DNA of 64,000 nucleotides from an uncultured Bdellovibrionales bacterium (GTDB lineage: Bacteria; Patescibacteriota; Minisyncoccia; Moranbacterales; GWC2-37-73): contig CAZAFB010000005.1 in assembly GCA_964484505.1 (NCBI GenBank), forward strand, positions 7,427-71,426, given 5' to 3'. This document shows positions 4,570-56,302 of the stretch, in pieces. Below the pieces are notes generated by a model. That model saw nothing but the letters and a program-made list of their open reading frames with translations. It had not been told where the DNA came from and did no database searches. The position numbers were made by a program, and so were the translations under genes. The stretch's first letter is position 1. Each line of letters begins with the position of its first letter.

Positions 4570-5706
4570 TCAACCGTGAATTACCACCGGCGTACCTATT
4601 TGAGCCCATTCATAAACTCTTTTTGCTGAACCAACCCCTAATCTGACACATCCGTGAGATACGGGAGTCCCCAGATGATTTGCTCCTTCTTTATATCCTC
4701 CGGGCCATTCAGGAAGTTCGTGAATGCCAAATTCCCCACTGGGAACCAAAGCCATCCAATATGGCATAAACAAAGAATATTTTTTTGACCAAGGTTTTTC
4801 AGCCTTATTACAAATAGCAAAAGTTCCTTCTTCTGTTTCCATTCCTCTCTTACCAGATGAAATCAGATACGCATCAAGAGCTTTGCCATCTTCAAAAATC
4901 ACCATTATTTGCTGCTTAAGATTTATGTCAATGTATTTACCACTTGTCAATTGAGGTTTGGTGTTTTCCTTGGCTTGCTGCAATTTCACTTGAGGATCAC
5001 GGTCCCATTTTTCTGAAGGCAACGTCTTTTTCGTTTCAAAAAAAGTTTCATATATCTGTCTGTATTCCTGACTCGCTTGCTTGGAATATTTTACATATAC
5101 CTTGATAAAATATTTTTCGCCTTCCGCCAAATCAACACGTGGCATCAAACGAATTTGTTGCTTTTCTTCATCGCGTGAATAGGCCAAATTATTTGCCGGA
5201 TCAACAACGAACTTCACATCCCATTTTTTATTAAGATTTTCAAAATTGGCAACTATGGGATTTTCCATATCCAAAGAAACATCTTTTTCTTTATTCAAGG
5301 GAAAAAATGATTTTACGGAAGGGCCGGGAGCGGTTTCAAAAAAGAGATCTTTCGTTGAATTTGTCATATAGGCGCTTCTTCCTTTGAGACTTATCTTGTA
5401 GGAACTTCCATAAGTCCAGAGTGATATGGGGATTATCGTCAAGCGCTTATTTTTATCATTCCAAAAAAAATTTACATCAGCTTTGGGCTCAATATTTATC
5501 GATTTTTGCGTAATTTCAGTCAGCATTGGCTGTGAAAAAATTATTTCCACAGCATCATCAGGATTTAAACTCCTGTCCTTCACTAAAAAAACATCTGCCG
5601 CAAAAATTTCCTGATATTTCAAAAAACAAAAAACACCACCTGCGATAATCGGAATAAGCAAGGCAATCAAAAAAATAATTTTTTTTCTTTTTCCAAAATA
5701 ATGCAT
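4570..5706 (-). CDS. L,D-transpeptidase (YkuD family) with N-terminal membrane anchor
   Basis: C-terminal catalytic motif SHGCVRL; N-terminal TM segment. Confidence 0.8.
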   Translation of the reverse strand: MHYFGKRKKIIFLIALLIPIIAGGVFCFLKYQEIFAADVFLVKDRSLNPDDAVEIIFSQPMLTEITQKSINIEPKADVNFFWNDKNKRLTIIPISLWTYGSSYKISLKGRSAYMTNSTKDLFFETAPGPSVKSFFPLNKEKDVSLDMENPIVANFENLNKKWDVKFVVDPANNLAYSRDEEKQQIRLMPRVDLAEGEKYFIKVYVKYSKQASQEYRQIYETFFETKKTLPSEKWDRDPQVKLQQAKENTKPQLTSGKYIDINLKQQIMVIFEDGKALDAYLISSGKRGMETEEGTFAICNKAEKPWSKKYSLFMPYWMALVPSGEFGIHELPEWPGGYKEGANHLGTPVSHGCVRLGVGSAKRVYEWAQIGTPVVIHG

Positions 5707-5707
5707 C

Positions 5708-6766
5708 CTATTTTATTTCATTTTCCGCAAACAACTCGCGCGCCTTATTCCAAACCGAATAATCTCCTTTTTCTTCAGCGAGCCAATACCACCATTCAAC
5801 GCCCCAGATATATATTTTTTCCATGTCAGTCTTTTTGGCAAAAGATACGTTGTCTGCCAAAATATTCGCATTCATTGATTCCAATTGTAATTCAAGCGGT
5901 GCATCCGTGGTCCAACCCTGCACCCACGGTTCTCCCTGTAATTCTATCACCATAGCGTTTTTTTGGTCGGCAAAAATCCTTATGAGTAGACGCTTCAATT
6001 TGAAAAAGTTTGGACCTATCGGATAGCGCCAATGTCCCAGAGGTTTTCCTAAAAATTCACGTGAGCTATATACTTCACGGTACATCGTCGTGCCAAAAAC
6101 ATCGGCCCGCTGCGCAGCTTGCAACCACAAACTAAGTTCGCCACTGTCTGTAACCACGATTTTTCTCGAAGGGTCGATTTTTCTTGCTTGAGCAATTTCC
6201 GCATCTACTTGTGCAGCAGGAATGGTTCCACAAATACCGAAATTTAAAAATGGTTCATTTTCAATTTGCCAACTTATAACTTCAGGATGATTGTCCTTAT
6301 AGCGATTTATGACTACATTTTCAAAATTAAGCAAAGCTTCTTTTTTCACATCATCATCTGTGCTGACCCACTCAGGCACAAAACACTCCGGCCAACGTGG
6401 AACCTTCTCTCCCACAACCAAAATCACTTTGGCATCACGCTTAGCAGCCTCTTGCAGTTGCCAATCAAGATCATCGAATAAATAAGTCCCTTTTTCTTTC
6501 TCAACTAAATCCCAATATATAGGAATGCGAATATTTTTCACTTTCAAATCATCGAGCATTGCCACATAAGCCTGTTTCCAGTCTAGACCGATATCCGAAG
6601 CGTAGCGTGCTGAAAAGGTTACCCCAAGAGGGACGGCCTTGCTGATTTCACTCATTGGTAAATTAATATAAACAAAAAACAAAACCAGCAAGAAAAATAA
6701 TGAAAACAAGGTCCAGCCGATTTTTTTCAATACCTTTTGCCTTTTTTCTGTTTCTATTTTTTTCAT
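5708..6766 (-). CDS. Glycoside hydrolase, GH5/GH113-like TIM-barrel (cellulase/mannanase-type), membrane-anchored
   Basis: WQIENEPF (NEP acid/base motif of GH5 clan A); later ELQGEPW candidate nucleophile; N-terminal TM segment; 2-nt gap to downstream L,D-transpeptidase. Confidence 0.5.
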   Translation of the reverse strand: MKKIETEKRQKVLKKIGWTLFSLFFLLVLFFVYINLPMSEISKAVPLGVTFSARYASDIGLDWKQAYVAMLDDLKVKNIRIPIYWDLVEKEKGTYLFDDLDWQLQEAAKRDAKVILVVGEKVPRWPECFVPEWVSTDDDVKKEALLNFENVVINRYKDNHPEVISWQIENEPFLNFGICGTIPAAQVDAEIAQARKIDPSRKIVVTDSGELSLWLQAAQRADVFGTTMYREVYSSREFLGKPLGHWRYPIGPNFFKLKRLLIRIFADQKNAMVIELQGEPWVQGWTTDAPLELQLESMNANILADNVSFAKKTDMEKIYIWGVEWWYWLAEEKGDYSVWNKARELFAENEIK

Positions 6767-7716
6767 AACTGACTGAATCTACCTGTGGTTAATATTCCGG
6801 AAACCAAATAAATACCGACAGCGATAATTGCTATTGCCAAAAAACGCTGCAGCCAATCATTAAAGGAGAGTTTTTCATCAAATATTTTTGGATATTTAAG
6901 GGAGGCAAAAAAAGCTAAAATAACCACGAAAACATATTGCACAGAGGTCAGCGAATTTACCAACGTCGCGCTACCCAGAGATATGGCGTAGTTAAACATC
7001 AGAGAACTTGTCCCCCCGATTATTTTGTTGGATATAAATAAGGCGCCCGTCTTGTAATTTTCTTTGCGCGCTTTTTTCATTCCCTTGAAGCTACCGATTA
7101 TTTCCTTGCGCCATTTCGGAACGAACAAAATTACAAACAGAACTAAAAAGGATCCTACCCTGGTCCAGAAAAAACCATTAAAAAATGTCTGCTCCGCATA
7201 TACCAATTTGAAAATTGCATAAGCTCCGGAAAGCAGCAGTGCGGAAAGAAGACAATGATAGAATCCGGAAAAGAACTTTTTTTTATTTATCTTGAGAGGA
7301 AGATCAAAAGAAAGGAGCAATCCCCCAAAAACCAGCATAAGCATTCCCGCGAGTTCGGTTTTATTGAGTACTTCATTGGACACAAAGAAGGAGAAAATAT
7401 ACGTACCCACCGGAGTCATTGCACCGATTACCGGAATAACTCTACTGGCTTGCGATTGACGAATAGCAAAATACAAAGACATTATGCCGAAACTAAACAA
7501 TAGCCCTGAAACAAAGCTTATGATTAACTGATAGAAAGATGGGGGCGTCAACTCTATAAAAGGCAAAAAAATAGCCGAGCCCAAGCCCAAAAGAGTAACA
7601 TAAAAAGTATAAACTGCCGGCGAGGAAATCCTTTTTGAACCCAGCAAAAACTTATCCAAAATATTGGCAAATGCACCTAGGAAATAAGCTCCCGATGCAA
7701 TCAAAATCCAAGTCAT
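6763..7716 (-). CDS. Polytopic membrane protein (about 10 TM, DMT/EamA-like)
   Basis: Hydrophobicity pattern only; 4-nt overlap with GH5-like gene suggests an operon. Confidence 0.4.
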   Translation of the reverse strand: MTWILIASGAYFLGAFANILDKFLLGSKRISSPAVYTFYVTLLGLGSAIFLPFIELTPPSFYQLIISFVSGLLFSFGIMSLYFAIRQSQASRVIPVIGAMTPVGTYIFSFFVSNEVLNKTELAGMLMLVFGGLLLSFDLPLKINKKKFFSGFYHCLLSALLLSGAYAIFKLVYAEQTFFNGFFWTRVGSFLVLFVILFVPKWRKEIIGSFKGMKKARKENYKTGALFISNKIIGGTSSLMFNYAISLGSATLVNSLTSVQYVFVVILAFFASLKYPKIFDEKLSFNDWLQRFLAIAIIAVGIYLVSGILTTGRFSQL

Positions 7717-7824
7717 ATGTTTTTGTTTTCATTACAATACAATTGTACAACATAAACCAAAGTGTAGAAAGCCGCAAAAAACAAAAGAGGCCTTTAAAGA
7801 CCTCTTTTGTAATATTCAACTTTT

Positions 7825-8559
7825 TTATCCTTCATGATTCATCAATCTGTTGAAATACAAATCGACATCACTGACCCACTTGCGAACCGCTTGCGGATCA
7901 TGTCCCGCACAACTGGAACCACATTTCCAAACGACCATACGCGAAGGGGTGTTTAAATTTTTGTCCACTAATTCGCCTATACGGCCGCCTATCGCATCCA
8001 CAGCTTCTTCAGGATCAGCAAAGCAGCCATATCCCATTGCGGTGCCGAGACTTCCGGCACCCTTATACCCCCAATAGTTATAGCAAGTCATCCCGTTCTT
8101 AGACGGAGCAGCCTTGCCCCAATCGCTTTCTTTTTTGGCGATACCAATGATCAGCGCAGCAACGCGCTTATCTTTTTCAGCTATGAAAGGAACCATTTCC
8201 TTGATTGGCGCATTGCCAACCACATCATAAAGTTCCTGTTCAAACCCGTCCTCATTTGCACTGGATGCATCTTTCGGATCTTCGTTTTTTTCAAAACACT
8301 GACCGTCCTCCTGCTCTGACTTTGAGAAAACCTGCGCCTGAGCATTTTGGATCGAATCTTTTACAGAGGCCTTTTGGGCATCTATATTTTCAGCATATGC
8401 ATATACATATTGCTGCGGTTGCAAGCGATCGAGACGAAAAAAAGAACCCGCCATGACTGCCATGGCGATGGTCGCGATTAGGATCTTTTTTTGTTTCGCC
8501 CGACCTTCTTTTTGCTTCCAGTTAAGCAACCAATTCCCCCATTCAGGGCTTTTACCCAT
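7825..8559 (-). CDS. Membrane-anchored GH73-like (glucosaminidase/FlgJ-type) peptidoglycan hydrolase, paralog 1
   Basis: IAKKESDWGK (cf. GH73 ESGWG catalytic-Glu motif); CYNYWGYK (cf. NNLFGIK); MVVWKCG; four conserved Cys; N-terminal TM segment. Confidence 0.5.
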   Translation of the reverse strand: MGKSPEWGNWLLNWKQKEGRAKQKKILIATIAMAVMAGSFFRLDRLQPQQYVYAYAENIDAQKASVKDSIQNAQAQVFSKSEQEDGQCFEKNEDPKDASSANEDGFEQELYDVVGNAPIKEMVPFIAEKDKRVAALIIGIAKKESDWGKAAPSKNGMTCYNYWGYKGAGSLGTAMGYGCFADPEEAVDAIGGRIGELVDKNLNTPSRMVVWKCGSSCAGHDPQAVRKWVSDVDLYFNRLMNHEG

Positions 8560-8783
8560 ACGGTAATGTTACTTCTTACTATCCCCCAGCGTGTCTGCCT
8601 AAAATCCATAGGTACTTTCGGACACGCATTCCAGGGTACCATCAGTACAAGTTGTGGTCAACGAAGTTATCCACATGCTTAAAAATATTTCTGGTAATTT
8701 TTGGCTTCAAAAAGCCATTTATCATTTTTATCCACAAAAAAATGGCTCAATAGAGCCAAATTTTAAATTTATCGCCAAATGTT

Positions 8784-9851
8784 TCAGTCTGCCATTTTCT
8801 TGATGTACATATCCACATCGTTAATCCATTTGTTGGCAGCAGCTCTGCCTCCCGTCGCATTGCAATCGCGACCACATTTCCAAACCACCATTTCCGAAGG
8901 CGTATCAATATTTTCTTCTTTTATAAGAGTACTTAAGCGTTTAGCAACAGTATCGACAGCGTCTTTCTTACTATTGAAACAGGTATGTCCGCCTGTACCC
9001 ATCAAATTGCGCTGAGCGCGATATCCCCAAAGATTATTACAATCTTGTCCTTCTAAAGTTGGTACTCTTTTCCCCCAGTTGCTTTCTTTTTTGGCAATAG
9101 CGATCAGATAGGTAGCGACTTTGCGGTCTTTGGCAAAGATATAAGGAAGCATCTCCTCGATAGGATATCCCTTGACCATTTTGCGTACTTCCTGCTCAAA
9201 TTTGTCCTGATCGTTTATTTCATCAAATTGACTAAGCACTTTTTCCGCCTCCGTCATATTACTATAATCAGCGCTTGCCAAATCGGAATTATCCGTTTGT
9301 ATTTGCTGATGCGTTGCAGGTTCCGTTGCGATGTTTCCAGCAGCAGCACCCTGACCAAGATAACGATAAATCATAGTCATGGAAAACATTCCCAGCAATA
9401 TCGCGCCAACAATCGAAAGATTCCACAAGCGCACCAATGACAACTGTTGAACAAAACCTCTCATAGCGCCATCGACAGCTTCAGCGCTTTGTCTGGAGAT
9501 AGCATCAATTCTGCGCTCAAGAGAGCGAGCTAATATACCGACTGAAGATGGCTGGTATGATTTATATTCACGCACGATACGGCTGCTAAGACTATCCCAT
9601 TTTTTAATATCGCGATCCAGTTTAATGCCCTTGCTGATCCATTGGTATTCGCGTGGAGTAATATAGCGGCGAGAATCCTCTGTTATAAACTTTCCCGTAC
9701 GATACTTGTTTGATAAAAGTTGAGAAAAATTAATTTGTCTGTCTTTTTTTTCACGCAAATTCTCGTAAATTGCCAAGTCAAAATAAGGATCAACCCTTCG
9801 CGGCACCCTGCCGAAATCGATATTTATTTTTGTCTTTGTATTAAAATTCAT
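8784..9851 (-). CDS. Membrane-anchored GH73-like peptidoglycan hydrolase, paralog 2, with extra N-terminal cytoplasmic region
   Basis: IAKKESNWGK, DCNNLWGYR, GGHTCF, MVVWKCG, DVDMY motifs shared with 7825-8559 and 37620-38228; internal TM segment. Confidence 0.5.
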   Translation of the reverse strand: MNFNTKTKINIDFGRVPRRVDPYFDLAIYENLREKKDRQINFSQLLSNKYRTGKFITEDSRRYITPREYQWISKGIKLDRDIKKWDSLSSRIVREYKSYQPSSVGILARSLERRIDAISRQSAEAVDGAMRGFVQQLSLVRLWNLSIVGAILLGMFSMTMIYRYLGQGAAAGNIATEPATHQQIQTDNSDLASADYSNMTEAEKVLSQFDEINDQDKFEQEVRKMVKGYPIEEMLPYIFAKDRKVATYLIAIAKKESNWGKRVPTLEGQDCNNLWGYRAQRNLMGTGGHTCFNSKKDAVDTVAKRLSTLIKEENIDTPSEMVVWKCGRDCNATGGRAAANKWINDVDMYIKKMAD

Positions 9852-9952: not shown

Positions 9953-10333
9953 TTATAGCCCTGCTTCCTTTTTGAAGAAATCAATCACTTCAACGTCACC
10001 TACATAGCACTTGCCATTTGCAGCTACAAAAGGCACACCAAGATCTTCTTTTTTGATATCACATTCCTCAGCTCGTTGCTGCCACTCTGATGCGGCATCT
10101 TTGTCCCCGGAATTGATAACTTCTTTCTTTGTATAGGCAACTTTATTGGCAACATTATTTTCATCTAAGAATGTTTGGACTTTTTTACAGTGAGAGCATT
10201 GCTGACCATAATAATAAACAACATCATTATTTGTTGATATCTGATTTGATTGCGAAGCGACACCCCAAGCTATAAAACAGCCTGCGGCTATGGCAGTTAA
10301 AACCAGTACGATAATCATCGTTTTCTTGGACAT
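9953..10333 (-). CDS. Membrane-anchored thioredoxin-fold protein (glutaredoxin-like thiol-disulfide oxidoreductase)
   Basis: CSHC (CxxC) active site after N-terminal TM segment; GVPFV motif typical of glutaredoxin fold. Confidence 0.6.
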   Translation of the reverse strand: MSKKTMIIVLVLTAIAAGCFIAWGVASQSNQISTNNDVVYYYGQQCSHCKKVQTFLDENNVANKVAYTKKEVINSGDKDAASEWQQRAEECDIKKEDLGVPFVAANGKCYVGDVEVIDFFKKEAGL

Positions 10334-10357: not shown

Positions 10358-11197
10358 TTATATTATAGCATATCTTTTTCGACAAAGATGGAAAAAGAAT
10401 ACGACAACAATAATCGCCACCAAAGAAAACAACTGCCCTTCCGTAAGTTTCATGCCGGCAAAAAATGCATAAGCTTTTTCCTCGCGGAAAAATTCCATCA
10501 TAAAACGAATTATCGCATATCCGAAAATATATATCAATAATAATTGTCCTGGAAATTTATTTTTATTGCGCAGCGACCAAAGAACCACAAACAAAACCAC
10601 TCCTTCAAAAAAAGCTTCGTACAATTGGGATGGATGGCGCAAAATGTTGCTTGTGTCCGCCGGAAAATACATTCCCCAGGGCATCTGAGTAACACGCCCG
10701 TATAATTCACCGTTGATAAAATTGCCTAAGCGCCCAAAAAAATATCCCAAGGGCACGGCCGGAATAATAAAATCCGCCCAAGCTAAAAAAGACTGCTTTT
10801 GTGATTTTAGATAAAAATAAGAAATTATGATAGCGCCAATAAGTCCGCCAAAATAGCTCATGCCATATATTCCGGTATAACTACCTTCCTTGTCAAAAGG
10901 AGATATGATCGCCAAGGGATTATGTAAATAATGCGCCGGCTCGTAAAAAAGGACATACCCTAATCGCCCTCCTATAATTATTCCGACAAAAATATAAACT
11001 AGGAGCTGAATCAACGTTTCATCTGAAAATCCAGATTCCTTTTTTTTGATCCTGTAAGTCAGCAATCCAAAAACTACGACAAAACCCGCAATATACATCA
11101 ATGCGTACCAGCGGACAGCAAAAGAGCCGATCGAAAAAACGACTGGATTTATATGGTATAGGAAGTGCTGATACAGAAAACTCACTAATTTGAGCAA
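10358..11197 (-). CDS. lgt: Prolipoprotein diacylglyceryl transferase
   Basis: Signature GRLGNFINGELYG; multi-TM; WYALMY N-terminal motif. Confidence 0.85.
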   Translation of the reverse strand: MLKLVSFLYQHFLYHINPVVFSIGSFAVRWYALMYIAGFVVVFGLLTYRIKKKESGFSDETLIQLLVYIFVGIIIGGRLGYVLFYEPAHYLHNPLAIISPFDKEGSYTGIYGMSYFGGLIGAIIISYFYLKSQKQSFLAWADFIIPAVPLGYFFGRLGNFINGELYGRVTQMPWGMYFPADTSNILRHPSQLYEAFFEGVVLFVVLWSLRNKNKFPGQLLLIYIFGYAIIRFMMEFFREEKAYAFFAGMKLTEGQLFSLVAIIVVVFFFHLCRKRYAII

Positions 11198-11258: not shown

Positions 11259-12317
11259 TTATTGATTATATTCTTTAAGTTGTTGTTTGAACTCAACAGC
11301 ATATATTTCCCAAAGTGCCAAGAAAATTGTCATTATGATTGGTCCAATAATAAAACCTGGGAGGCCAAACAAGCTTATGCCACCCAAGGTGGCAAAAAAT
11401 ATCAATAAAGGATGCATTTGGGTATCCTTACCCACAAGCTTGGGACGCAAGAAATTGTCAATTAAAGAAATAACCAAACCTCCAAAAAGGAGCACTGTTA
11501 TTCCTTGCCAAATATTGCCAGTAAGCAGCAAGATCGCTCCTGCAGGAAACCACACGACGCTTGAACCAACCATCGGAATTAGCGAAAGTATAGCCATTAT
11601 TATGCCCCAGACAACAGCTGAAGGTATCCCTACTATCGCAAACAAGATTCCTCCTAATGATCCTTGCACAATTCCAACCACTAGAGTTCCCTTAACCGTA
11701 GCTGTAATCATGGACACGAATTTATCAATAAGCATCCTCTCATGGTTATTCTTGAGCGGACTGAGATACATGATGCGTTTTATTAAATCCTTTCCACCAA
11801 CCAACAGGTAGTACAAAGTAAAAAAGACAACAAAAGACAAGAAAATAAAATGAGCTATGCCCTGATAAGCCTTTTGAACAAGCAGAAGCAAAGCATTGGC
11901 TGTTGAGCTTACTATTTTGGATATCGTTTGGGCATCAATGTTTTTTTCTATTCCTAAATAACGACCCGCCGACACTATTTGGGAGGATTCTAATATGCCA
12001 TCGATATTTTTCATAAATGATTCCTCTCCGGACACTCTTTGGTAAAAATCCGCAGCCTCGTTAACTACCAACCCTAAAATTGTAACAAATACAGCCACAA
12101 AAAGGGATATTGCTAACAAAGAAGTGCACAACGCCGCCAGGTGACGCTTGCCGCCAGTCAGACGTTCAAAAAATCTCTGCGGCCTTTGAAAAATTATTGC
12201 CAGAATTGCCGCTATACAAAGCGCGAGCAGAAACGGCTGCAAAACAAAATAAGCGGCTATCGTAACACAAAACAACAAAATACCAAAAAAATAAACATTT
12301 AAATTATTGAGCTTCAT
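11259..12317 (-). CDS. AI-2E family (UPF0118/PerM-like) transporter
   Basis: Eight predicted TM segments with the topology and size typical of AI-2E/YhhT proteins. Confidence 0.55.
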   Translation of the reverse strand: MKLNNLNVYFFGILLFCVTIAAYFVLQPFLLALCIAAILAIIFQRPQRFFERLTGGKRHLAALCTSLLAISLFVAVFVTILGLVVNEAADFYQRVSGEESFMKNIDGILESSQIVSAGRYLGIEKNIDAQTISKIVSSTANALLLLVQKAYQGIAHFIFLSFVVFFTLYYLLVGGKDLIKRIMYLSPLKNNHERMLIDKFVSMITATVKGTLVVGIVQGSLGGILFAIVGIPSAVVWGIIMAILSLIPMVGSSVVWFPAGAILLLTGNIWQGITVLLFGGLVISLIDNFLRPKLVGKDTQMHPLLIFFATLGGISLFGLPGFIIGPIIMTIFLALWEIYAVEFKQQLKEYNQ

Positions 12318-12365: not shown

Positions 12366-13403
12366 CTATCTTCTTTTGGCATCATTCACTACCCCATATA
12401 TTATGTCAGAAATATCTCTGATTGTGCTTGATAATTCACCGAAACTATCTCCCCTTGTCATCACGCAAAGTAAATAAGGGTTGCCCGGATAATAAATAAT
12501 TCCGCAATCATGCAATTGTTTTGTTTTTGCTCCCGAAATATCAATTTCTCTTTCCCCAAATTTGTGAGCGATTTTCATATCTGCTGGTATGCCTGCAACA
12601 AGACCGTCTTTATATTCCACATTGGAAAGTAATTCCAAGGCCTTTTCCGAGTTTGCCCTATTTAAATATGATGCGTTATAAAGTATCCTGAAAAAAGATG
12701 CGTACTGCTTAACAGACATGAAATCTTCAGGCTTGCGAATATCTGGCACACTCATACCTAAATCCAAATAAATCTTATCCAGACTTTCCTGATCCATATT
12801 GTCCAAAAGAATCCTCATGGCATCATTGTCAGAATACACTATCATGAACCACAAAAGCTTTTCTATCGTATATTCTTGACCCTCTTGTATACTATATTTT
12901 GGTTTTAAATTTTGTTTTAAATTTTTATTTATCTCATCCTTTCCGAAAATAAGCTTCTCTTCCAATAAATTCGGGTAAGTTTCCGATTTTTTCAAATATG
13001 CCATCAGGAGCGGTACTTTCAAGAGAGATGCCGGAGAAAAGTTTTCACCTTCATTGATGCCGAACCAGGGTCCATTATTAAGATCTCTGTAATAAACAGA
13101 AACCTCTTTAGCCCTTTTAATATCTATGATATTTTTTTGAATCTTGTTTTTCGCCTCTTCTTCAAAAGGAATATATTCATTATTCAAAATTTGACCTTCC
13201 ATTTCACACTCCAGGAGAGGATTTATGAAAGAAAAGCCATTCTGACGTAATTCTGTTTTAACTGAGGATGTCCCCCCGACTTCTTCTTTCTTATGATCTC
13301 CTGTTGAAAATAAGACGATGCACAACCCAAATCCCGCAAAAAATGACAGGATGTGCAAACGATACTTTATAAGAAAATCCAAAGATGTCCTGAAAAAAAC
13401 CAT
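12366..13403 (-). CDS. Class A beta-lactamase-like serine hydrolase / PBP-like protein (membrane-anchored)
   Basis: SPASLLK (SxxK), YSDN (SDN), HKFGE (K[TS]G-like); paralogous to 56293-57318. Confidence 0.6.
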   Translation of the reverse strand: MVFFRTSLDFLIKYRLHILSFFAGFGLCIVLFSTGDHKKEEVGGTSSVKTELRQNGFSFINPLLECEMEGQILNNEYIPFEEEAKNKIQKNIIDIKRAKEVSVYYRDLNNGPWFGINEGENFSPASLLKVPLLMAYLKKSETYPNLLEEKLIFGKDEINKNLKQNLKPKYSIQEGQEYTIEKLLWFMIVYSDNDAMRILLDNMDQESLDKIYLDLGMSVPDIRKPEDFMSVKQYASFFRILYNASYLNRANSEKALELLSNVEYKDGLVAGIPADMKIAHKFGEREIDISGAKTKQLHDCGIIYYPGNPYLLCVMTRGDSFGELSSTIRDISDIIYGVVNDAKRR

Positions 13404-18040: not shown

Positions 18041-19324
18041 CTATTCGTAGCGCAAGGCGTCCAAAGCGTGGATTTGGGCGGCACGACGGGCCGGCAAAAG
18101 ACCGGTAACCATACCGAGAAAAATAATAAAAGCACCTATGGCGATCATGAATGTCGGCGGAATATACACAAAATGGATGGCTGATAAGCCCTGTTTGGCA
18201 GCAAAAATATTAAAGATAAAGTTTATCAAAACAGCAAAGCCATAACCAAGAGCAAAACCAACCAAGCCACCGGTAAAACTTATAATTGCCGCTTCAAACA
18301 CGAACATATAAAAAATATCCTTGCGTTTGGCTCCCAAAGCTTTCATGATTCCTACTTCGCGCGTTCGTTGAAGAAGTGAAACGCTAAGAGTATTGAGCAT
18401 GCCCATAGCGGAAATGGACATGATAATCGTACCCAAGACTACTAATACAATGCGGATAATCACGAAAAAACTGTTGATATCCGTGACCAGATCAACTACG
18501 CTTTCCGTAACCAATCCCATTTGTTCGATCTGGGAACGAATATTCCCGATATTACCAGCATCTATTCTTAATTTTGCTGATTGAGCCGCAGTTACTCCCA
18601 AATCTCGCTTGAGCAAGCCAAATGGCACATAAATAAAAGTATTCTGGTTATCACTTATAACACCCACAATGGTGCTAGTATCTTCCTTTTCTTCTCCTGA
18701 TTTCTCAACGTTTTCACTGATATCACGCGAGAGGGCCAGATTAAATTTGATTTCCTTGCCTAAGGCTTCTTCATTATTTGCAAAACCAAGAAGACCTGCC
18801 AAACGAGAGGAAATGATCACAGTATTTCCTTCGTCTTCATATTTACTCAACTCTCCCGCAGTAAGCGACATATTGGCCAAGGGGAAATAACCCCTATACG
18901 CACCATAGATAACCACGTCTGTTTGGGAATTTTCAAAATAGGCCTGCCCGCCTCCATTCATCAAAACTTCTATCTCCTTCACGCCTGAAATTTCGGAAAG
19001 TTTTTTGACCATATCATCATTCATCAACACAAAACTTTCCAGATTGGCATTACTGACATCGAGCACATCGATAGAGTTATTTTTAGTAACCTCATTTACA
19101 ATAACCCGCTGCACTCCGAAGCCTAAACAAATTAAAAAGGTAATAATGGCAATACCGATAGCTACACCACCGATAGTAAGCATGGAGCGCATCCTTCCTA
19201 CCTTTAAATTACGATATCCGATGAATATCGTCGTCGATAATTTCATGCGCGAAGCCTTGCCCCCATCGCAACTGGCTTCTGACAGAAATTTGTTTTTTAT
19301 CCAATTTAATAACGCCATATACAA
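18041..19324 (-). CDS. ABC transporter permease, FtsX/MacB family
   Basis: N-terminal TM, large extracytoplasmic domain, C-terminal FtsX-like four-TM bundle. Confidence 0.8.
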   Translation of the reverse strand: MYMALLNWIKNKFLSEASCDGGKASRMKLSTTIFIGYRNLKVGRMRSMLTIGGVAIGIAIITFLICLGFGVQRVIVNEVTKNNSIDVLDVSNANLESFVLMNDDMVKKLSEISGVKEIEVLMNGGGQAYFENSQTDVVIYGAYRGYFPLANMSLTAGELSKYEDEGNTVIISSRLAGLLGFANNEEALGKEIKFNLALSRDISENVEKSGEEKEDTSTIVGVISDNQNTFIYVPFGLLKRDLGVTAAQSAKLRIDAGNIGNIRSQIEQMGLVTESVVDLVTDINSFFVIIRIVLVVLGTIIMSISAMGMLNTLSVSLLQRTREVGIMKALGAKRKDIFYMFVFEAAIISFTGGLVGFALGYGFAVLINFIFNIFAAKQGLSAIHFVYIPPTFMIAIGAFIIFLGMVTGLLPARRAAQIHALDALRYE

Positions 19325-19406
19325 GTGAAATATAAAATTCCTACACTTAGTTCAAATATGCATCATTGTAATCGATAACCTTAAACATTTTTAATCTTTA
19401 GTGATT

Positions 19407-20129
19407 CTATTTATCGACAACTAGTCCATCCAGCATATGAATGACTTGATCAGCATATTGATACTGTTCAGGATTATGCGTAACCATCAAAATAGTAATA
19501 TTGAATTGCTTATTGAAATCTTTTAGCAATTCCATTAATTCCTGTCCGGCTTTCATATCCAGATTTCCAGTAGGCTCATCCGCAATCAAAAAACGCGGAT
19601 TAAGCAAGAGCGCCCTAGCCAAGGCAACGCGTTGCTGCTGGCCTCCGGAAAGGTCATATGGCCTATTGTGCATCCATTTGCCCATGCCCACCATCTCAAT
19701 CAATTGCGCTGCACGTTCCAGCGATTGCGCGAAGGTATCTCCTTTTATTAAGGATGGGATGGAAACATTTTCCAGAACAGAAAGTGATTTTATCCAGAAT
19801 GTCTGCTGGGGAATAAAGCCAACAAATTTGTTGCGAAAATCAGCTCGCCAATCCTTGGTTTTTTCCCAAATGCTGCATCCATCTATATATATCTTGCCCG
19901 TCGAAGGACCTTCCAGCCCATAAATAATATGAAGCAATGTTGATTTTCCACAACCGGAAGGTCCTGCCAAAATTGCAAAATCGCCCTCGTTTATGGAAGC
20001 GCTCACACCTTTGAGTACATTTACCGTGGTTGCACCCAAAATGAAATCTTTGGTTACATCTTCCACTCTGATGATTTCTTTTTTTGTTTTTTTTGTTTTT
20101 TCTATTTGCTCCATAATTTCGAGATCCAA
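19407..20129 (-). CDS. ABC transporter ATP-binding protein (MacB/LolD-like)
   Basis: Walker A GPSGCGKST; ABC signature LSGGQQQRVALARAL; Walker B LIADEPTGNLD. Confidence 0.9.
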   Translation of the reverse strand: MDLEIMEQIEKTKKTKKEIIRVEDVTKDFILGATTVNVLKGVSASINEGDFAILAGPSGCGKSTLLHIIYGLEGPSTGKIYIDGCSIWEKTKDWRADFRNKFVGFIPQQTFWIKSLSVLENVSIPSLIKGDTFAQSLERAAQLIEMVGMGKWMHNRPYDLSGGQQQRVALARALLLNPRFLIADEPTGNLDMKAGQELMELLKDFNKQFNITILMVTHNPEQYQYADQVIHMLDGLVVDK

Positions 20130-23100
20130 CCGAATCTGCTGGCGAATGTATCCACCACCACCTCCGTTGCGTTTTGTTTTTTGCCTTCCGTTACAATTGT
20201 CTGGGGTTGGGTCAAGGTTAAGTTTCCAGCATCATCATATGCTTCGACTTGATAACTGTATACTTGTCCAGCCTCTGCCGGAATCGTAACCATATGGTAG
20301 GTATTCAAATTGTCTTCCGGTGTGTTCTGTTCAAAATTAGATACAATAACTCCTTTGCCAAAGCGTACCTTGGTACGAGTCAATTCATTTGTTTCTATTT
20401 TTATATATATATTCGCTTGAGCATCCTTGCCACGCCCGTTTACTTTACCAACAGCTCGGTTGGTAACAATTTCCGGAGGCCTGCTGTCAGATTTGGTCGT
20501 AATTTTCTGCTCTACGGGAGTAGCCTCTACGCCAGCTTCACTAACACCACTTATGGAAAGCGTGTATTCCTTGGCAGGATCCATTCCGGCTATTTCAGCG
20601 ACATGTTCAGTTGTTGGCTGACTTTCCAAAAAATTATGGAAATTAGCCTCATCGGCAGTCTTGAATCTGACCAATGTGGTCGTATTTACATCTGTCTTAT
20701 ATCTTACCACAACAGTCGGCACATCCACATTCTCCTTATTTTCGACTTGAACTTCCGATACTACCGGCAATTTAAGTGTAGTGAAAGTATATTCATCTGA
20801 AGAGAATTGGTTATTGTCAGCATCCAATGCATCGACCATTACTTTGTATGTTGAGGCACTGTCCAGTCCTTCCAGCTTCATCACATGGGAAGTCGAACCG
20901 GACGTTTCCTCTGAAGATCCAGTAAAAGCTCCTTTGCCGAATTTCAAGGTACAAGTTGCACTGACATTAGTTTTCCAAGAAACCGTTGCTGTGTTAAGAC
21001 CGACGTCATTGATAACCATATCGGAAATAGTAGGAGGAGGAAGGGTTGTGAAAGTTAGAATCTCAGAGGTACCAATGTTACCGTCAGGATCAATATATTT
21101 AACACGATAGAAATATTTAGTATCAGCAGCAAGACCTTTCACTTGCACGGCGTGATCCGTGACCGAGTCAACTTGCCCGGTTGTTTCCCCGAGTTCCGTA
21201 GTTTTGCCATATTCAATGAAAGAACTAGCCGTACGATTTGTTGCCCACGTGAAATCAGCAGCAAATGATTGTGCTTCAACAGCTGGCTGTTTAACTATGG
21301 CCGGTGGCCTTGTGTATTTACCAGTCGGCGTAAGCTGCACTGTAGCGGAAGCCGGAGAATAGTTATTGGTCTTATCTTTGGCTTTAACGTAGTAATAATA
21401 TAATCTACTTTCCAATTCCGTATCCACATAAGCGCTACCAGTAGTTGAAGCTATCTCCGTGAAATCGACATTGTCATCCGAACGATAGATAGTATATCCG
21501 GCAAAATTACCCGAATCGTACGTTACAGGCGGTGACCATTTCACTGCCACGCTATATTCAGCATTTTCACGATCAGAGGTATCGAAGGCTTGTGCGTTGA
21601 GCGGCTGACTTGGCGCGCTGGTCTCGGCATAGAAATTTACCGCTGCCGGATTATTCCAATCGGCGTTGTTCAAAAGATCGGTTTCACCTCCTTCGTTCAA
21701 GGCAACAATATAAAAAGTATTCTTTCCATATTGCGTAGCAAATGGTCCTGGTCCTGCCGCAAGTGCCGTGGTTACAGTCGTGTTGTACGGGGTTGGCAAA
21801 ACATTTATTGAATAATAATATTTGAGCTTAGTAGGATCTCCTCCGTATACTGATGGAGTTTCCCAAGTGAAAGTGAATGAATTTGTCGTATTGTTTATAT
21901 CCGACGGAGTAACTTGCAGATTATTCGGTGGTGAAGCCGGACCTCCGGTATAGTAGTAATCCTGAGAAATTGGCGAGGAAGTGTTTCCTGCGGCATCTAC
22001 TGTGCGAAGATAGAAAGTATTTTTATTGTTCTGATAATGTGTTTCTGTTTGGGTAACTGTTGCAGGATCAGGAATATCATGCCAGACCCCAGGTGTATCA
22101 CCACCAGTTCGATATTGAAACATAGCCACGCCAGAATTAGCATCTGATGCATCCGGAGTCCAGGAGAAAGTATATGAAATAGCAGATGAATACCCTGTCG
22201 GATTCACGGAAATATCACTCGGATTGCTTGGTGCAGTTGCATCATAGCGATAAACAAATGCATCATAACTTGTTGAGCTTATAAAACCGGCATTATCAAT
22301 GGTCTTGATTTTTAGATAATAGTCAGAACCGGAACTTGATGGCGATCCAGCAAAACTGTTTCCGGCTTGAAAAGAGCCGTCTACAAAAGGATCAGCCGAA
22401 GCATTAGTGCCGAAATAGACATAATATCCTGCCACACCCGAACCTCCGGTGTTATCCTGAGCACCACCCCCTGCTCCCGCCAGAGGCCATTCAAAATATG
22501 GTGCTGCATGATTATACCAATTGTTAGTAGTTATACTACTTCCCGTAGAGCTGCTTTTGGCTGTAATTGAGGAGGGATTTGTCGGAGGATCAATATCTTG
22601 ATAATAATTGATCGTAAAATCATCAAGCCGCGGTGAAAAAATACGATCATTTGAAGTGAATCTGGCACGAACCTGAATGAATTCTGCGGGAGCAGAAACA
22701 ATACTCATCACATGTGTGTTACCAAATACATGATCATTTGCCGTCGGACTCCAAGATGACCAATCCGTACCGTTGCTAGAAGTTCGTGTTTCAAAAGTCA
22801 ATGTCGTATTATTGGGCTGCACATAATTTACGGTAAGATTTGCCCAGCGATAAACGGAAACAAGGTCCATTGCTTCAGATTCATATGTTCCAGTCTTTGC
22901 AAAACCGGTACCATTTGTTTCACTACCGATTACATAATTATACAAACCATCGCCAAAAGAATTTGTGCCAGCACCCGAAATCAACCAATTGCGATTAGCA
23001 AGATAAACAGAAAATCCTCCGGTAGTTACATTGGCTGGAATATTGGCGGAAGTTAAAGATTCCCACGTTCCAGGCGTCGCCTGCGCAGTATTGTAACGAT

Positions 23101-26100
23101 AATAGGTGTTGGTATTGATACCACGAGATACGTAGAGATAACCATCATGACCATCAATCATATTGGCGCCAGCTCCTGCAGTTGCGGGCAATGCTCCGAG
23201 CACAGTCCAAGTAGTGTTGGAAATTTGATAACGACAAGTAGTCGCATTTGTGGCACCTCGTAAAAGATAGATATAACCGTCTTTATATACAATCTTTCCG
23301 CCATCACCCGTAAGACATGAAGCATTGACGGGAAGTGCCGCAGACCAACGAGAACCTGCTGCCGCAGTCGTATCATAACGCCACCAGGTGTTAGCACCGT
23401 TTCCGGCGGTTAAATATATATATTGAGATCCGTCATAAGTCATTGAGGAGCCAACCAGTGTTTTAGCCGGCGGACGGTCCGTGATTATTTCTTCCCAAGT
23501 ATTGGTATTAGTGAGGTATCTGAAAAAATATGGGGCTTTGGAATCTCCGGTACGTGCGGTCCTAATATTTCCTGGTATATAATAAACGGCATTTTCATCT
23601 TCATTGAAAACCATACTACTTCCTTGATATAAACCTACCGGCAATTTCGAGAGTTCCGTAAATGTTCCCGAATCCGTATCATAACGCCCAAAAACATTAT
23701 CATATGAACCACGTGCCATATAAATCGAATCACTTTTGTCCGCAGCTATAACCGATCCATTACCATAGAGGAAATAACTGGTTCCGGCAGTTGTCGACGG
23801 TCCAAAAAATGCTCGCTGCGGCAATTCCCAAGTATTTTCAGCAATATTAAAGCGATAAAAATTCGTTGTCGTGCCACCGCGCGTTGCATAGATGTAACCA
23901 TTGTAAACAACCATGGATGCACCATAGGATATGGAAGCAGGAACATCAGGCATCACATACCAGGTAGCAGACTCAATATCGTAGCGATAAAATTTTTGCC
24001 TACCTTTTCCCGCAAACACATAGATGGAATTGGCAGTGTTGTCAAAAACGATAGTGCCACCATCATAGATTCCTTCGGGAGCCATAGGCAGCGAAGTCCA
24101 AGAGTTGGCATGCTCACCCCGAGATAAATCGTCCCCGATGGAATACTTGGCAAAATAGGGATACAAGTTTCCCTGAATCACATAAATATTATTGCGCTCA
24201 TCATAGATAGCATCACCACCAATATATGTCCTTTGTCCATCTGCCGTATTTGGGTTTCCAAACTCCGCATTCGGGAGCTGCGTCCAAGAGGGTGTACATG
24301 ATGTTTGATTATTGCACGTGTCATATTTGTAGAAAGCATCGTCATTTCCAGGCATCGCATAAATATAGCGCGAACCATCATAGGAAAGATTCGAGCCATA
24401 ATCGAAATTCTTCGGCGCGCTGTCTATTGTGCTCCAAACATTATTCTCTATGTCATACATCCAAAAAGTTGAAGTTGCTACACCTCGAGCAGCATATAGA
24501 TAACCGGCAGGACCTGCCACCAAAAATCCGCCATTATTGACTGCCAAAGGAGCGGCAGCAACGGTTGCGGGAGATGTGGTCCATGTATCAGTTTCTATTT
24601 CATACCTATGAAACGTGGTTCCGTTAGCGCCACCGAAAGTATAGAGACAATGATTACTATTGCCCCTACATGAACTTAATGCCAATTCTCCCCCAGCAGC
24701 AATATTTCCCAGAGCAAGTGAGAGCCGTGCTTGATTCCAAAAACCATTTGATGAATTCAGTCTTACGGAATCAGTTACACTAGTGGCATTAACATCAGTA
24801 AGCGTGCCTGCGGCAAAATCTGCAGTTGAAGTTTTTTGCTCATCAAGATAAGGGGAGACACCGCTATAGACATAAGTAAATGCATCCCAGGTAGAAGAAG
24901 AAACATTGCCGTTTACATCTTTGGTTTTAACGCGCAGATAGTATGTTCCTGTTTGCAGGGCCAAATTTACCACATAAGAACTGGCGGTTTGGTATGATCC
25001 TTGCGTTACTGGGTCTGCGCCATCGTCAGTACCAAAATACACATAATAACCATCAATACCACTGCCGGAGTCGGCAGCACCACTCCAAGAAAAATAAGGA
25101 TGTTCATGCGGATATGATTGCCCTGAGGTCAGCGCTTGTCCACCTACTTGCTGCGATCTTGCATCAACCGCGGTCGGATTTGTAGGCGCATCGTCCTCAC
25201 TGTTATAAGAAATTGTGTAATCAGATACTGTAGGCGTGTAAAGGCCATCAGACGTGTTAAGCGTAACCTTTACTTGCACATATCTGTTGACTGGCGAAGC
25301 GATTGTCGTTCCGGAAATAACTTGCCAAGAAGACCAGTTTTCGTTATCAGAACTAGTACGGGTTTCATAGGTAATGCTGGTATTGGTCGGCGTATTGTCC
25401 GCTTTATTGAAAGAAACCCAGCTTTGCACATTGGATAAGTCTAGTGATTGACTGACATAAGTACCACTAGCAACAAAATTGGTAGCGCCGGAAGTGTAAC
25501 TCCACACGTCAGCAAGACCTTGCCCTGTTGTGGCAAAAAATGAAGTGCCACCGGCATATTCTATAGATGCTCCATTATATGGTCCGCGGCCGAAGGTATA
25601 TTGTTGATTATTCGGCAGCTTGCGCCAAGTGTCCGTGGCAATGGTATATTCCCAAGTGTCATCTTTATAAAGTCCCGCCAGAGCATATACTTTGCCATTG
25701 GCATAAGTCATATCAGTACCATAATATTGTGCAAAAGGCGTTGAAGCAATCTTACTCCAAACACCTCCACTATATTTCAAGAAGGTTGTTTCTCCATCTC
25801 CCAACATCACATACACATCAGTTCCATCAGTAACAATACGTGCTCCAATACTAGCATAATAGGTAACACCACTCACCACCATGTTGGCAAGGGCGGTCCA
25901 ACCGCCAGCATCAGTGTAACGATAAAAATTGGCAGTACCATTACCGCGAATGGCATAAATTGAATTATCGGATGCGCAAGCAAGCCCTGCACCATTACTT
26001 GCCGTAGCCGGGAAAGGCTGTGTGGTCAATGTCGTCCAAGCGTTTTCAGCGTAACGATAGAATGTTGTCGTATTGCCGCCTAGAAGAGCATACACATAAC

Positions 26101-37030: not shown

Positions 37031-37402
37031 TTACTCCGTAGTTTTCCCATAATCCGCCTTCTTGAATTTCACCGAATATTGCGGCTCGTAGGAATTTTGA
37101 TATTCATCAGTAACAACAACCGTTTCTCCCTTCATCAATGTTGAAATCGCGATGTCATTCATCATTTCTTTTTCGGATTCCATCTCATTCTTCAGGTCTT
37201 CAAGTTTCTCATAGGCTTTCCCCATCTCCGCCTGGATACGCCCCTCTATCTGCTTTTTTTGCTCGCGCAGTTCTTTGATTTGTTCAGTTATCTCCTCATA
37301 TTTATCCGCTTGCACCAGAGCATCCTTATACATTTCCTTCAATTCTTTCTGTTCTTTTCTGATTTCACGAATCCGATTAAATGTCTCTTGTATATTTTTC
37401 AT
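37031..37402 (-). CDS. Coiled-coil hypothetical protein
   Basis: Lys/Glu-rich heptad-like sequence; 123 aa. Confidence 0.45.
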   Translation of the reverse strand: MKNIQETFNRIREIRKEQKELKEMYKDALVQADKYEEITEQIKELREQKKQIEGRIQAEMGKAYEKLEDLKNEMESEKEMMNDIAISTLMKGETVVVTDEYQNSYEPQYSVKFKKADYGKTTE

Positions 37403-37619: not shown

Positions 37620-38228
37620 TTATTCATCGGCAAGCTGACTATAGTAATAATCCACGTCTTGTTCCCATTTTTTTACGCTTGCTGTCGGATGAGTACAATT
37701 ATATCCACACTTCCACACAACCATTTTTTTGGGAGTATCCAAATTTTCTTCATTAACCATTTTGTCTATACGGCTGGCAATTGCATCAACAGCTTCTTTG
37801 GGATTATCAAAACAAGTGTGTCCACCACTACCCATTTTTTCCGATTTCATGCGAAAGCCCCAATAATTATAACAGTCTTCTCCGGCAAGCACCGGCTTTC
37901 TTTTGCCCCAATTGCTTTCTTTTTTGGCAATGCCCACAATAAAAGCAGCGACTTCACGGTCATAGGAAGCAATATATGGAGTCATTTGTTCAATCGGATA
38001 TCCCTTAACCATTTCCTTAATTTCCTTTTCTAGAGCAGCATTCTTTTGGGGAGCTTCCTGCACGATTAGTGTCGGCATATTTATTTCACGCCTAGCATGC
38101 TGAGAAACAACCAAAAACGTCTCCAAAAAGACAATGGCGATGATAAGCCCCAAAATGCGGGCACGGGACGGACTGATATTTCCCAAATCAAGTCCCAAAT
38201 ATATATTTTTTTTGCTTTTTTTAGCCAT
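37620..38228 (-). CDS. Membrane-anchored GH73-like peptidoglycan hydrolase, paralog 3
   Basis: IAKKESNWGK, DCYNYWGFR, GGHTCF, MVVWKCG, DVDYY motifs; N-terminal TM segment. Confidence 0.5.
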   Translation of the reverse strand: MAKKSKKNIYLGLDLGNISPSRARILGLIIAIVFLETFLVVSQHARREINMPTLIVQEAPQKNAALEKEIKEMVKGYPIEQMTPYIASYDREVAAFIVGIAKKESNWGKRKPVLAGEDCYNYWGFRMKSEKMGSGGHTCFDNPKEAVDAIASRIDKMVNEENLDTPKKMVVWKCGYNCTHPTASVKKWEQDVDYYYSQLADE

Positions 38229-55564: not shown

Positions 55565-56302
55565 TTAATTATTAATCACTTCACTATTTGAGGCTTGATT
55601 TTCATTGTTTATAGCTTCCGAATTTTCCGTAGCAGGAAAAATATCATTATAATCCTGCGCTGTAGCTGTTGAATCGTTAGCCGTTTCTGCCTGAGCTGTT
55701 TCGCTCTGCTGACTGTCCGCGGAAAACAGCATGTCACTTATTTTTCCCACCAATTTGTCGATGCCATCCAATGCGCCATCAATGCCACTTTTCGCCCAAG
55801 AAGGATATTTTGTCTCGGCAAGCCAAGTGCGCATATCCAGAATTGATTGTTGAAAAACAGCAAACGCATCGAGAAACCTAAGCTCAGCACTTTCTTTTTC
55901 CTGCGTTTTATTTTCGACTTCATTATCCAAAAAATTTTTGGATTTTATACCACCTTTTTTGACAATCGAAACCAAGTTTTGACTCTTTTCTCCACCAACA
56001 GCAACTATGTAATTACCAGTTGGAATTTCAGATTCCGAAAAATCTTTCGAAAGGAAGAATTTTCCATCCTCACAATCTGCAATTATTGTTTTCAACGAAT
56101 CTTTACTTTCCCCATTTTTAAACAGCTCAATTTTTGTTTGTTTTTCATTGCATTCTCCTTGAATATTAACCATGCTCCCCTCCTGATTAAGCGCCCAACT
56201 TGTCTGAGCCAGAGCTTCTGGCGAAACAATGCAAAAAAGTCCTAAGAATAAAGCGGCTTTTAAAATCATGGGTTTGTTTTTATTCATAATGTTTGTTATC
56301 AT
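55565..56302 (-). CDS. Secreted hypothetical protein
   Basis: Signal peptide; acidic C-terminal tail. Confidence 0.45.
   Translation of the reverse strand: MITNIMNKNKPMILKAALFLGLFCIVSPEALAQTSWALNQEGSMVNIQGECNEKQTKIELFKNGESKDSLKTIIADCEDGKFFLSKDFSESEIPTGNYIVAVGGEKSQNLVSIVKKGGIKSKNFLDNEVENKTQEKESAELRFLDAFAVFQQSILDMRTWLAETKYPSWAKSGIDGALDGIDKLVGKISDMLFSADSQQSETAQAETANDSTATAQDYNDIFPATENSEAINNENQASNSEVINN

Follow-up and report, generated by a model that had tools for sequence, protein, structure and literature searches.

A cysteine-rich variant of the GH73 domain in three paralogous, putatively membrane-anchored proteins of Moranbacteria

RESULTS

A GH73-related domain is shared by three paralogous proteins

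A 64,000-nucleotide (nt) stretch of contig CAZAFB010000005.1 (here called the window) encodes on its minus strand three proteins, designated par1, par2 and par3, that have a C-terminal region of about 138 amino acids (aa) in common. As judged from profile comparisons and structure predictions, this region defines a family that is homologous to GH73 and keeps its fold and its general-acid Glu, but it fails the Pfam threshold and has lost the YATD motif and the acidic residue of the β-hairpin. We file it as a variant within the GH73/lysozyme-like kind; it is neither an ordinary GH73 member nor a new kind of system. The three proteins are probably membrane-tethered, extracytoplasmic peptidoglycan glycosidases derived from GH73, which would act through a single Glu with assistance from the substrate, would contain two disulfides and would serve in growth or division of the cell wall.

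The genes for par1 (7825-8559, minus strand; 244 aa) and par2 (8784-9851, minus strand; 355 aa) lie in tandem. The third gene, par3 (37620-38228, minus strand; 202 aa), was found 27.8 kb away when the window was searched with the par1 and par2 proteins (tblastn). A first-pass annotation, made from the letters alone, had described a tandem pair with one distant copy, and the open reading frames (ORFs) lie exactly where it had placed them. The shared domain corresponds to residues 106-244 of par1 (7828-8244), 218-355 of par2 (8787-9200) and 66-202 of par3 (37623-38033), all on the minus strand. It is most similar between par2 and par3 (55% identity, E=3e-52), followed by par1 and par3 (48.5%, E=4e-41) and par1 and par2 (44%, E=5e-39). 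The next best matches to the domain in the window had E>0.09 (tblastn), so the paralogy is far above chance. The block of conserved motifs that the annotation had quoted is accurate in all three proteins.

Profile and fold comparisons support homology to GH73

The same annotation had seen a resemblance to GH73 in the E-S-x-W-G and N-x-x-G motifs, and this was supported by sequence-profile, profile-profile and fold tests. We scanned 149 diverse family members against Pfam and counted matches at E<=1. PF01832 was the only recurrent family, with sub-threshold matches in 58 members (best E=4.4e-5); the next family was matched by 5 members. The SLT family PF01464 was absent from the ten families that had matches in more than one member and can thus be matched by a single member at best, and this tally of 58 against at most 1 favors GH73 over SLT by sequence. 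When the three window proteins were scanned singly, par2 matched PF01832 with E=0.13 (13.3 bits) and par1 and par3 gave no match to it. The latter two weakly matched a FlgJ model of NCBIfam (E=0.011 for par1 and E=0.013 for par3); like the match of par2, these matches fall on the E-S-x-W-G region.

For the profile-profile comparison (hhalign), a GH73 set of 71 domains was assembled from the FlgJ proteins of Escherichia coli, Salmonella and Sphingomonas and 68 phage domains from IMG/VR, the latter being 29-49% identical to Salmonella FlgJ. The family profile aligned to this set with a probability of 95.0% (E=3.6e-8) over 119 columns, that is, over the whole domain. Controls in which the GH73 alignment was reversed or its columns were shuffled yielded probabilities of 0.1-0.3% (E of about 0.3). 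A smaller test against three FlgJ sequences gave E=2e-4 over the region of the catalytic Glu.

Structure prediction returned a lysozyme-like fold. The AlphaFold model of par3 had a mean predicted local distance difference test score (pLDDT) of 86, with block means of 89-98 for residues 61-200, and the domain of the par2 model reached 90-98. GH73 structures were the top matches of both models in the PDB (Foldseek). At least six of the first seven matches of par3, and also rank 9, were GH73 proteins (rank 8 was an unrelated chain); in the list for par2, ranks 1-8 and 10 were GH73. These matches comprised Sphingomonas FlgJ (3vwo, 2zyc and 3k3t), Salmonella FlgJ (5dn4 and 5dn5), LytB (7pj3 and 7pj4) and a Clostridioides difficile protein (8yxk), with Foldseek probabilities of 0.85-1.0 and target-normalised TM-scores (TMt) of 0.35-0.65. 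According to DSSP, the β-lobe is cut down to short bridges in both models. The predicted models securely indicate a lysozyme-like fold, and a specific affinity to GH73 is supported mainly by the sequence profiles.

Searches in other collections were negative. Searches of PDB sequences with par3 and family profiles gave chance matches only (COP9, gp41, serpin and Rcf1), a PHROGs search gave nothing meaningful, and the domain had no tblastn match in 50,697 phage records, so it is not a known endolysin type. Two other names were considered and dismissed. A match of par3 to DivIC (E=0.15) and the name "FtsB" on one par2 homologue, which we regard as spurious, extend over no more than the membrane helix and the helical linker next to it.

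The general-acid Glu is kept, and the β-hairpin and the YATD motif are lost

Conservation was assessed in an alignment of 147 sequences, made up of par3 and 146 cluster representatives (50% identity), and family motifs are numbered after par3. In the hhalign alignment, E104 of par3 is placed on E184 of Salmonella FlgJ, the GH73 general acid. The corresponding residues are E144 in par1 and E256 in par2, and the codons lie at 37917-37919 (par3), 8128-8130 (par1) and 9084-9086 (par2), all on the minus strand. The residue is present in 147/147 family sequences, as is E184 in 71/71 members of the GH73 set. An invariant general-acid Glu is a feature of GH73, for example, E184 of FlgJ, E122 of Auto and E585 of LytB (PMC4752226, PMC4633669), and the proton donor has been described where the central helix reaches its C-terminus (PMC4633669). 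In the AlphaFold models, E104 and E256 are likewise found at the C-terminal ends of helices 91-105 and 243-257, respectively. Two further segments are kept: the family motif [YF]-N-Y-W-G-[YF]-[RK] aligns to Y-N-V-F-G-V-K of Salmonella FlgJ, and H-T-C-F-x-S-P-x-x-A-V aligns to F-R-V-Y-S-S-Y-L-E-A-L.

Two features are changed in the same alignment. A deletion of about 18 residues removes the β-hairpin that carries a second Glu, E223, in FlgJ, and W-K-C-G-x-x-C (with [SY]-[SD] at x-x, followed by [GT]) replaces N-A-G-Y-A-T-D. YATD is a strongly conserved motif of GH73 that precedes the last helix. Only the general acid is invariant in GH73; the second carboxylate "remains elusive" and is not conserved across the family (PMC4752226). 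A hairpin carboxylate (E223 in FlgJ and E156 in Auto) occurs in many but not all GH73 enzymes. It is missing from LytB and AtlWM, which have a short β-lobe and one essential acidic residue and for which substrate-assisted catalysis via the acetamido group of N-acetylglucosamine (GlcNAc) was proposed; the authors link the choice of mechanism to the length of the β-lobe (PMC4633669). On the alignment presented here, the family is an extreme case of this short-lobe type.

Besides E104, the residues S105, G108, N121, G124, W172, K173, C174, G175 and W188 are invariant (147/147), and W107, Y122, W123 and Y195 are nearly so. This aromatic-rich set would suit a glycan groove.

A conserved cysteine quartet probably forms two disulfides

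Four invariant Cys residues had been pointed out in the first-pass annotation, and all four are present in 145 of the 147 sequences. They are Cys119, Cys139, Cys174 and Cys178 in par3, Cys159, Cys179, Cys213 and Cys217 in par1 and Cys271, Cys291, Cys326 and Cys330 in par2, with the spacing C-x19-C ... C-x3-C. Such a quartet is atypical of GH73, as had been suspected: in any column of the GH73 set, Cys is found in 22 of the 71 members at most. The four residues of the family probably pair as two disulfide bonds, which would make the shortened lobe and the loop in place of YATD more rigid.

A putatively membrane-anchored protein with a predicted glutaredoxin/thioredoxin fold (126 aa) is encoded directly upstream of par2 (9953-10333, minus strand). 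The annotation had described it as a CxxC protein beside the tandem pair, in agreement with its N-terminal hydrophobic helix, its C46-S-H-C49 motif (10187-10198, minus strand) and its Pfam matches (Glutaredoxin, E=9.6e-4, near the threshold with 19.8 bits for a cut-off of 22.9; Thioredoxin, E=0.012, below the cut-off). Orthologues lie between Lgt and par2 in 22 of 41 Lgt-containing loci and carry CPHC (18 loci) or CSHC (4 loci). Two further Cys residues of the window protein, C91 and C109, align with Cys of the orthologues compared. C-x-H-C is the oxidising motif of the DsbA/PDI type. The 9953-10333 protein would resemble these thiol oxidases in its predicted thioredoxin/glutaredoxin fold, its predicted extracytoplasmic anchoring and its putative CPHC/CSHC active site. 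It differs from DsbA in being much smaller, in lacking the helical insertion of DsbA and in scoring below the Pfam cut-offs. Among the window proteins scanned, there was no re-oxidising partner (DsbB or VKOR), no CcdA and no sign of a substrate relationship with the three paralogs. The C-x-H-C neighbor favors disulfides in the quartet, even though the linkage is not universal.

A site for structural Zn2+ or a different metal is a possible alternative for the quartet, though less probable than disulfide formation, and would fit with life in anoxic groundwater. The near-invariance of all four Cys (145/147), none of which thus appears dispensable, would agree with a metal site, as would the frequent His beside two of them (H137 in 98/147 and H180 in 103/147) and the absence of the oxidoreductase gene from about half of the loci. 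However, neither His is invariant, the spacing is not a classical zinc-knuckle pattern, the domain would be extracytoplasmic, and the neighboring oxidoreductase carries an oxidising motif. We therefore prefer two disulfides.

The paralogs are differently tailed

Membrane anchoring had been claimed for all three proteins and is borne out by one strongly hydrophobic N-terminal segment per protein, which is preceded by basic residues and was modeled as a long helix by AlphaFold. In par1, a short basic N-terminus is followed by the membrane helix (residues 26-44, the best 19-residue hydropathy window; 8428-8484, minus strand), an acidic Q/E/D-rich linker that holds a fifth Cys and the GH73-like domain; six K/R are found in the 15 residues before the helix and one after it. 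The par2 protein comprises an N-terminal region that is presumably cytoplasmic (residues 1-138; 9438-9851, minus strand), a membrane helix predicted by hydropathy and AlphaFold (residues ~139-165, AlphaFold helix 139-165; 9357-9437, minus strand), a linker and the domain. In par3, a basic N-terminus and a conserved motif adjoining the helix (G16 conserved in >90% of this type) precede the membrane helix (residues 23-41, from hydropathy and AlphaFold; 38106-38162, minus strand) and the domain. Given a membrane helix with preceding basic residues, the shared domain would be extracytoplasmic, and for par1, par2 and par3 we infer a single-pass topology in which the N-terminus faces the cytoplasm and the C-terminus lies beyond the membrane.

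The additional cytoplasmic domain of about 150 aa that had been ascribed to par2 stands as a conserved region of somewhat smaller size: about 138 residues precede the helix and are conserved in 87 orthologues, and their cytoplasmic side follows from the proposed topology. Orthologues of par2 are conserved over their full length (46-70% identity). In the N-terminal region, F55, T57, E58, D59, S60, Y63 and D86 are invariant in the 87 orthologues. Most of these residues belong to the motif F55-I-T-E-D-S-R-R-Y-I-T-P66 (9654-9689, minus strand), with the consensus F-x-T-E-D-S-x-x-Y-x-T-P. AlphaFold confidence for the region was low (pLDDT 40-80), and no match was found in Pfam, NCBIfam, PDB sequences or Foldseek, so that no fold could be assigned. 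The region would thus appear to be a partly disordered cytoplasmic tail with a binding motif, which may serve as a docking site for a cytoplasmic partner.

Terminator-like hairpins were found in a consensus scan directly after the stop codons of par1 (7781-7810, minus strand; a 13-bp stem and a T run) and par2 (8743-8758, minus strand). The scan returned six such sites in 2.9 kb, compared to 2.5 +/- 1.5 in shuffled sequences. The tandem par2 and par1 genes may form separate or attenuated transcription units.

The family is sharply bounded and apparently confined to Moranbacteria and their relatives

In a collection of 5.8 billion proteins, par3 had 1955 and par2 had 1297 relatives at E<=1e-3. 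None of these carried a precomputed Pfam domain, the source names were all "hypothetical protein" save the one "FtsB" mentioned above, and the named records were metagenome-assembled genomes (MAGs) of Candidatus Moranbacteria or Parcubacteria. At 90% identity, the family falls into about 2000 clusters. When 1.84 billion 50%-identity representatives were searched exhaustively with a profile, 300 proteins were retrieved at E<=1e-3, 238 of them below 1e-30. By these searches, the family is compact and sharply bounded, with no gradation into ordinary GH73. No Pfam, NCBIfam or PHROG model describes it, and a literature search found no description of it in the context of Patescibacteria, the candidate phyla radiation (CPR), Moranbacteria or GH73.

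For the genomic context, a scan of GTDB species representatives yielded at least 576 stretches that encode the family, and all context counts refer to the best 80 of these. The 80 loci are all from Moranbacteria, Parcubacteria or Patescibacteria MAGs. Many GTDB records titled "uncultured Bdellovibrionales" (L008, L013, L023, L026, L033 and many more) have the same gene order as Moranbacteria MAGs, and these titles look taxonomically mislabelled. The contig of the window (99 kb) stems from JGI metagenome 3300022666.

Two conserved gene arrangements surround the paralogs

Neighboring window proteins were placed onto the 80 related loci, and two arrangements emerged. The first (about 40 loci) contains an AI-2E transporter, Lgt, often the thioredoxin-like protein, par2, par1, EamA, a GH5-like glycosidase and, in part of the loci, a YkuD L,D-transpeptidase. 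In the window, these genes, all assigned by Pfam and on the minus strand, are the AI-2E family transporter (11259-12317; 33 of the 80 loci), the prolipoprotein diacylglyceryl transferase Lgt (10358-11197; 41 of the 80 loci), the EamA transporter (6763-7716), a membrane-anchored GH5-like TIM-barrel glycosidase (5708-6766) and YkuD (4570-5706), the last three being supported by synteny as well. Orthologues of par1 lie 3' of par2 in about 30 loci. The glycosidase gave weak matches to GH5, GH2 and GH42 (best E=9e-7), and its synteny with par1 and EamA was seen in about 19 loci.

The second arrangement (about 25 loci) consists of par3, a 123-aa coiled-coil protein and Dus. A divergent unit of the MarR/HlyD/AcrB type lies upstream in six loci, and a seventh has HlyD and AcrB only. 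In the window, the cytoplasmic coiled-coil protein is encoded directly downstream of par3 (37031-37402, minus strand). It is 62-93% identical across syntenic Moranbacteria loci, which exceeds the conservation of par3 itself, and it had no family match. Both arrangements occur together on several contigs, separated by 19-30 kb, as is also the case in the window. This recurrence indicates that the triplication is old and has been maintained.

Elsewhere in the window, Pfam identified a class A penicillin-binding protein (PBP), an M23 peptidase and a WxL-type peptidoglycan-binding protein. Together with YkuD and other wall genes, these show that the organism clearly makes and remodels peptidoglycan. 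Two paralogous proteins of the Beta-lactamase2 family (PF13354) are encoded at 12366-13403 (minus strand) and 56293-57318 (plus strand), with E=6e-38 and E=4e-29; one of the genes adjoins the AI-2E/Lgt cluster. A 2533-aa protein encoded at 20102-27703 (minus strand) combines Kelch repeats with FN3 and Ig-like domains and probably belongs to the cell surface; directly downstream of its gene and on the same strand lie genes for an ABC ATPase and a permease of the MacB/FtsX type (18041-20129). ORFs without a Pfam match at E<=1e-4 are located at 57334-60777 (1147 aa), 53333-54487, 54587-55450, 55565-56302, 62076-63167 and 43613-44674, all on the minus strand.

DISCUSSION

The combination of a GH73-like profile, a predicted lysozyme-like fold and a strictly conserved general-acid position leads us to regard par1, par2 and par3 as probable peptidoglycan glycosidases. 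The neighboring genes (YkuD, the GH5-like glycosidase, EamA, Lgt and a Beta-lactamase2-like protein) are genes of the cell envelope, in keeping with this view. The invariant Glu would serve as the general acid on the glycosidic bond of the glycan strand, and W107, Y122, W123, W172, W188 and Y195 probably line the glycan groove. Since the β-lobe is truncated and lacks the second carboxylate, we propose that catalysis would most likely be substrate assisted via the 2-acetamido group of GlcNAc, as for LytB and AtlWM. The four Cys would probably be present as two disulfides, introduced by the co-encoded oxidoreductase with its DsbA-type motif where this is present. The target would be the cell's own peptidoglycan. 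The paralogs are ancient, conserved and differently tailed, with a short tail and a helix-adjacent motif in par3, a 138-aa region with a peptide motif in par2 and a long acidic linker in par1. This suggests a division of labor while the wall grows or divides, in which par2 would be controlled from the cytoplasm.

Several observations weigh against this interpretation. No member reaches the PF01832 gathering score of 30.2 bits (149 scanned). The Foldseek E-values are weak (0.01-0.9, with TM-scores of 0.4-0.65), and among viral predicted structures GH73 and SLT (GH23) matches are interleaved. The hairpin Glu, present in 70/71 members of the GH73 set, is deleted in the family; the Tyr of YATD, present in 71/71, is replaced by Ser in 64/147 family sequences and kept as Tyr in 41/147. 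Finally, the oxidoreductase gene is found in only 22 of the 41 Lgt-linked loci.

The closest known enzymes illustrate what is kept and what is changed. LytB of Streptococcus pneumoniae (7pj3/7pj4), which is among the top fold matches of the par3 and par2 models, and AtlWM of Staphylococcus warneri share the lysozyme-like helical domain with a general-acid Glu that ends the central helix and, like the family, have a short β-lobe without an essential second carboxylate (PMC4633669). LytB differs in that it keeps YATD, has no such set of four Cys and owes its targeting to choline-binding, SH3b and WW domains instead of a membrane helix. The C-terminal GH73 domain of FlgJ (Salmonella 5dn4/5dn5 and Sphingomonas 2zyc/3vwo) provides the best profile and fold matches. 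Its motifs A-x-x-E-S-G-W-G, Y-N-x-F-G-[IV]-K and F-R-x-Y-x-S-x-x-E-A correspond to A-K-K-E-S-x-W-G, [YF]-N-Y-W-G-[YF]-[RK] and T-C-F-x-S-P-x-x-A-V of the family. FlgJ, however, has a long mobile β-hairpin with E223 where the family has its 18-residue deletion, contains YATD and no conserved Cys, and is secreted via the flagellar apparatus instead of being membrane anchored. By TM-score, the closest solved structure is the glucosaminidase domain of the C. difficile endolysin Ecd09610 (8yxk), with a TMt of 0.56 for par3 and of 0.65 for par2 (root-mean-square deviation of 3.0 angstroms over 146 columns). This domain, of 13-14% identity, belongs to a phage endolysin, whereas the family has no relatives in the phage records.

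We consider it unlikely that the proteins share this fold and substrate but act as lytic transglycosylases instead of hydrolases. Intramolecular attack by the C6-OH of N-acetylmuramic acid (MurNAc) would then generate 1,6-anhydro-MurNAc ends, like those produced by GH23, GH103 and GH104 enzymes, for a function like that of MltG, a membrane-anchored terminase of glycan strands. In GH23 SLT transglycosylases, too, the fold is lysozyme-like and only one Glu is catalytic, frequently as part of an E-S motif, and the family likewise combines one invariant Glu followed by Ser with deletion of the β-lobe acid. SLT and LT_GEWL proteins are among the viral fold matches, and GH23 enzymes occur lower in the PDB list. 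Moreover, substrate-assisted mechanisms have been proposed for GH23, GH103 and GH104 (PMC4633669). The fold matches to GH23 are nevertheless the weaker ones, with GH73 structures at the top of the PDB lists, and the family gives no sequence-profile signal for SLT, in contrast to the 58 of 149 members with a PF01832 match and the 95% hhalign probability for GH73. Pneumococcal MltG is a bitopic protein with a cytoplasmic region and an outside glycosidase, an architecture similar to that proposed for par2; its YceG fold is not GH73-like, and any likeness would be one of function by analogy only.

A more far-reaching proposal builds on the preferred GH73-derived glycosidases. The paralogs might be the lineage-specific core machinery for glycan cleavage in Moranbacteria, with a redox-switched Cys quartet serviced by the CPHC oxidoreductase and with par2 controlled from the cytoplasm through its motif. 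In these reduced genomes, they would then stand in for canonical autolysins or for a strand terminase of the MltG type, and their GH73 scaffold might even support lytic-transglycosylase chemistry. We regard this as speculative and rather improbable as a whole.

Activity of GH73-derived glycosidases on another glycan appears quite improbable; candidate substrates would be glycans of a secondary cell wall or an S-layer, chitin-like material and, for a CPR epibiont, the wall of the host cell to which it attaches. The loss of YATD and the remodeled β-lobe mean that the groove may differ, the genes are linked to the GH5-like glycosidase and EamA, and the lifestyle of CPR bacteria is often episymbiotic. 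On the other hand, the short linker (about 25 residues in par3) would keep the domain close to the cell's own membrane and wall, the window encodes the class A PBP, YkuD and M23 proteins for synthesis and remodeling of peptidoglycan, and the phage records hold no relatives. Least probable is a catalytically dead, GH73-derived module that binds peptidoglycan or regulates as a membrane-anchored sensor or scaffold, since despite the missing hairpin acid and YATD and the scores below the family cut-offs, conservation of the general-acid Glu (147/147) and the adjoining S-x-W-G in all three paralog types would be unexpected for a pseudo-enzyme, and single-Glu GH73 enzymes are active (PMC4633669).

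As membrane-tethered peptidoglycan glycosidases, the three paralogs would be relevant mainly to cell-wall enzymology and to CPR biology. They would widen the sequence space of GH73 by a type with a minimal β-lobe, no YATD and four added Cys, and they constitute a natural test case for the debated single-Glu, substrate-assisted mechanism of short-lobe GH73 enzymes. They would also connect predicted hydrolases of the wall with a putative thiol oxidoreductase outside the cytoplasm, and this in a lineage that is thought to be mostly anaerobic. How the uncultured, reduced-genome Moranbacteria and other CPR bacteria build and split their walls has largely been inferred from incomplete annotation. 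The reading proposed here assigns a function that can be tested to conserved "hypothetical" proteins, whose three paralogs recur together on contigs across the Moranbacteria.

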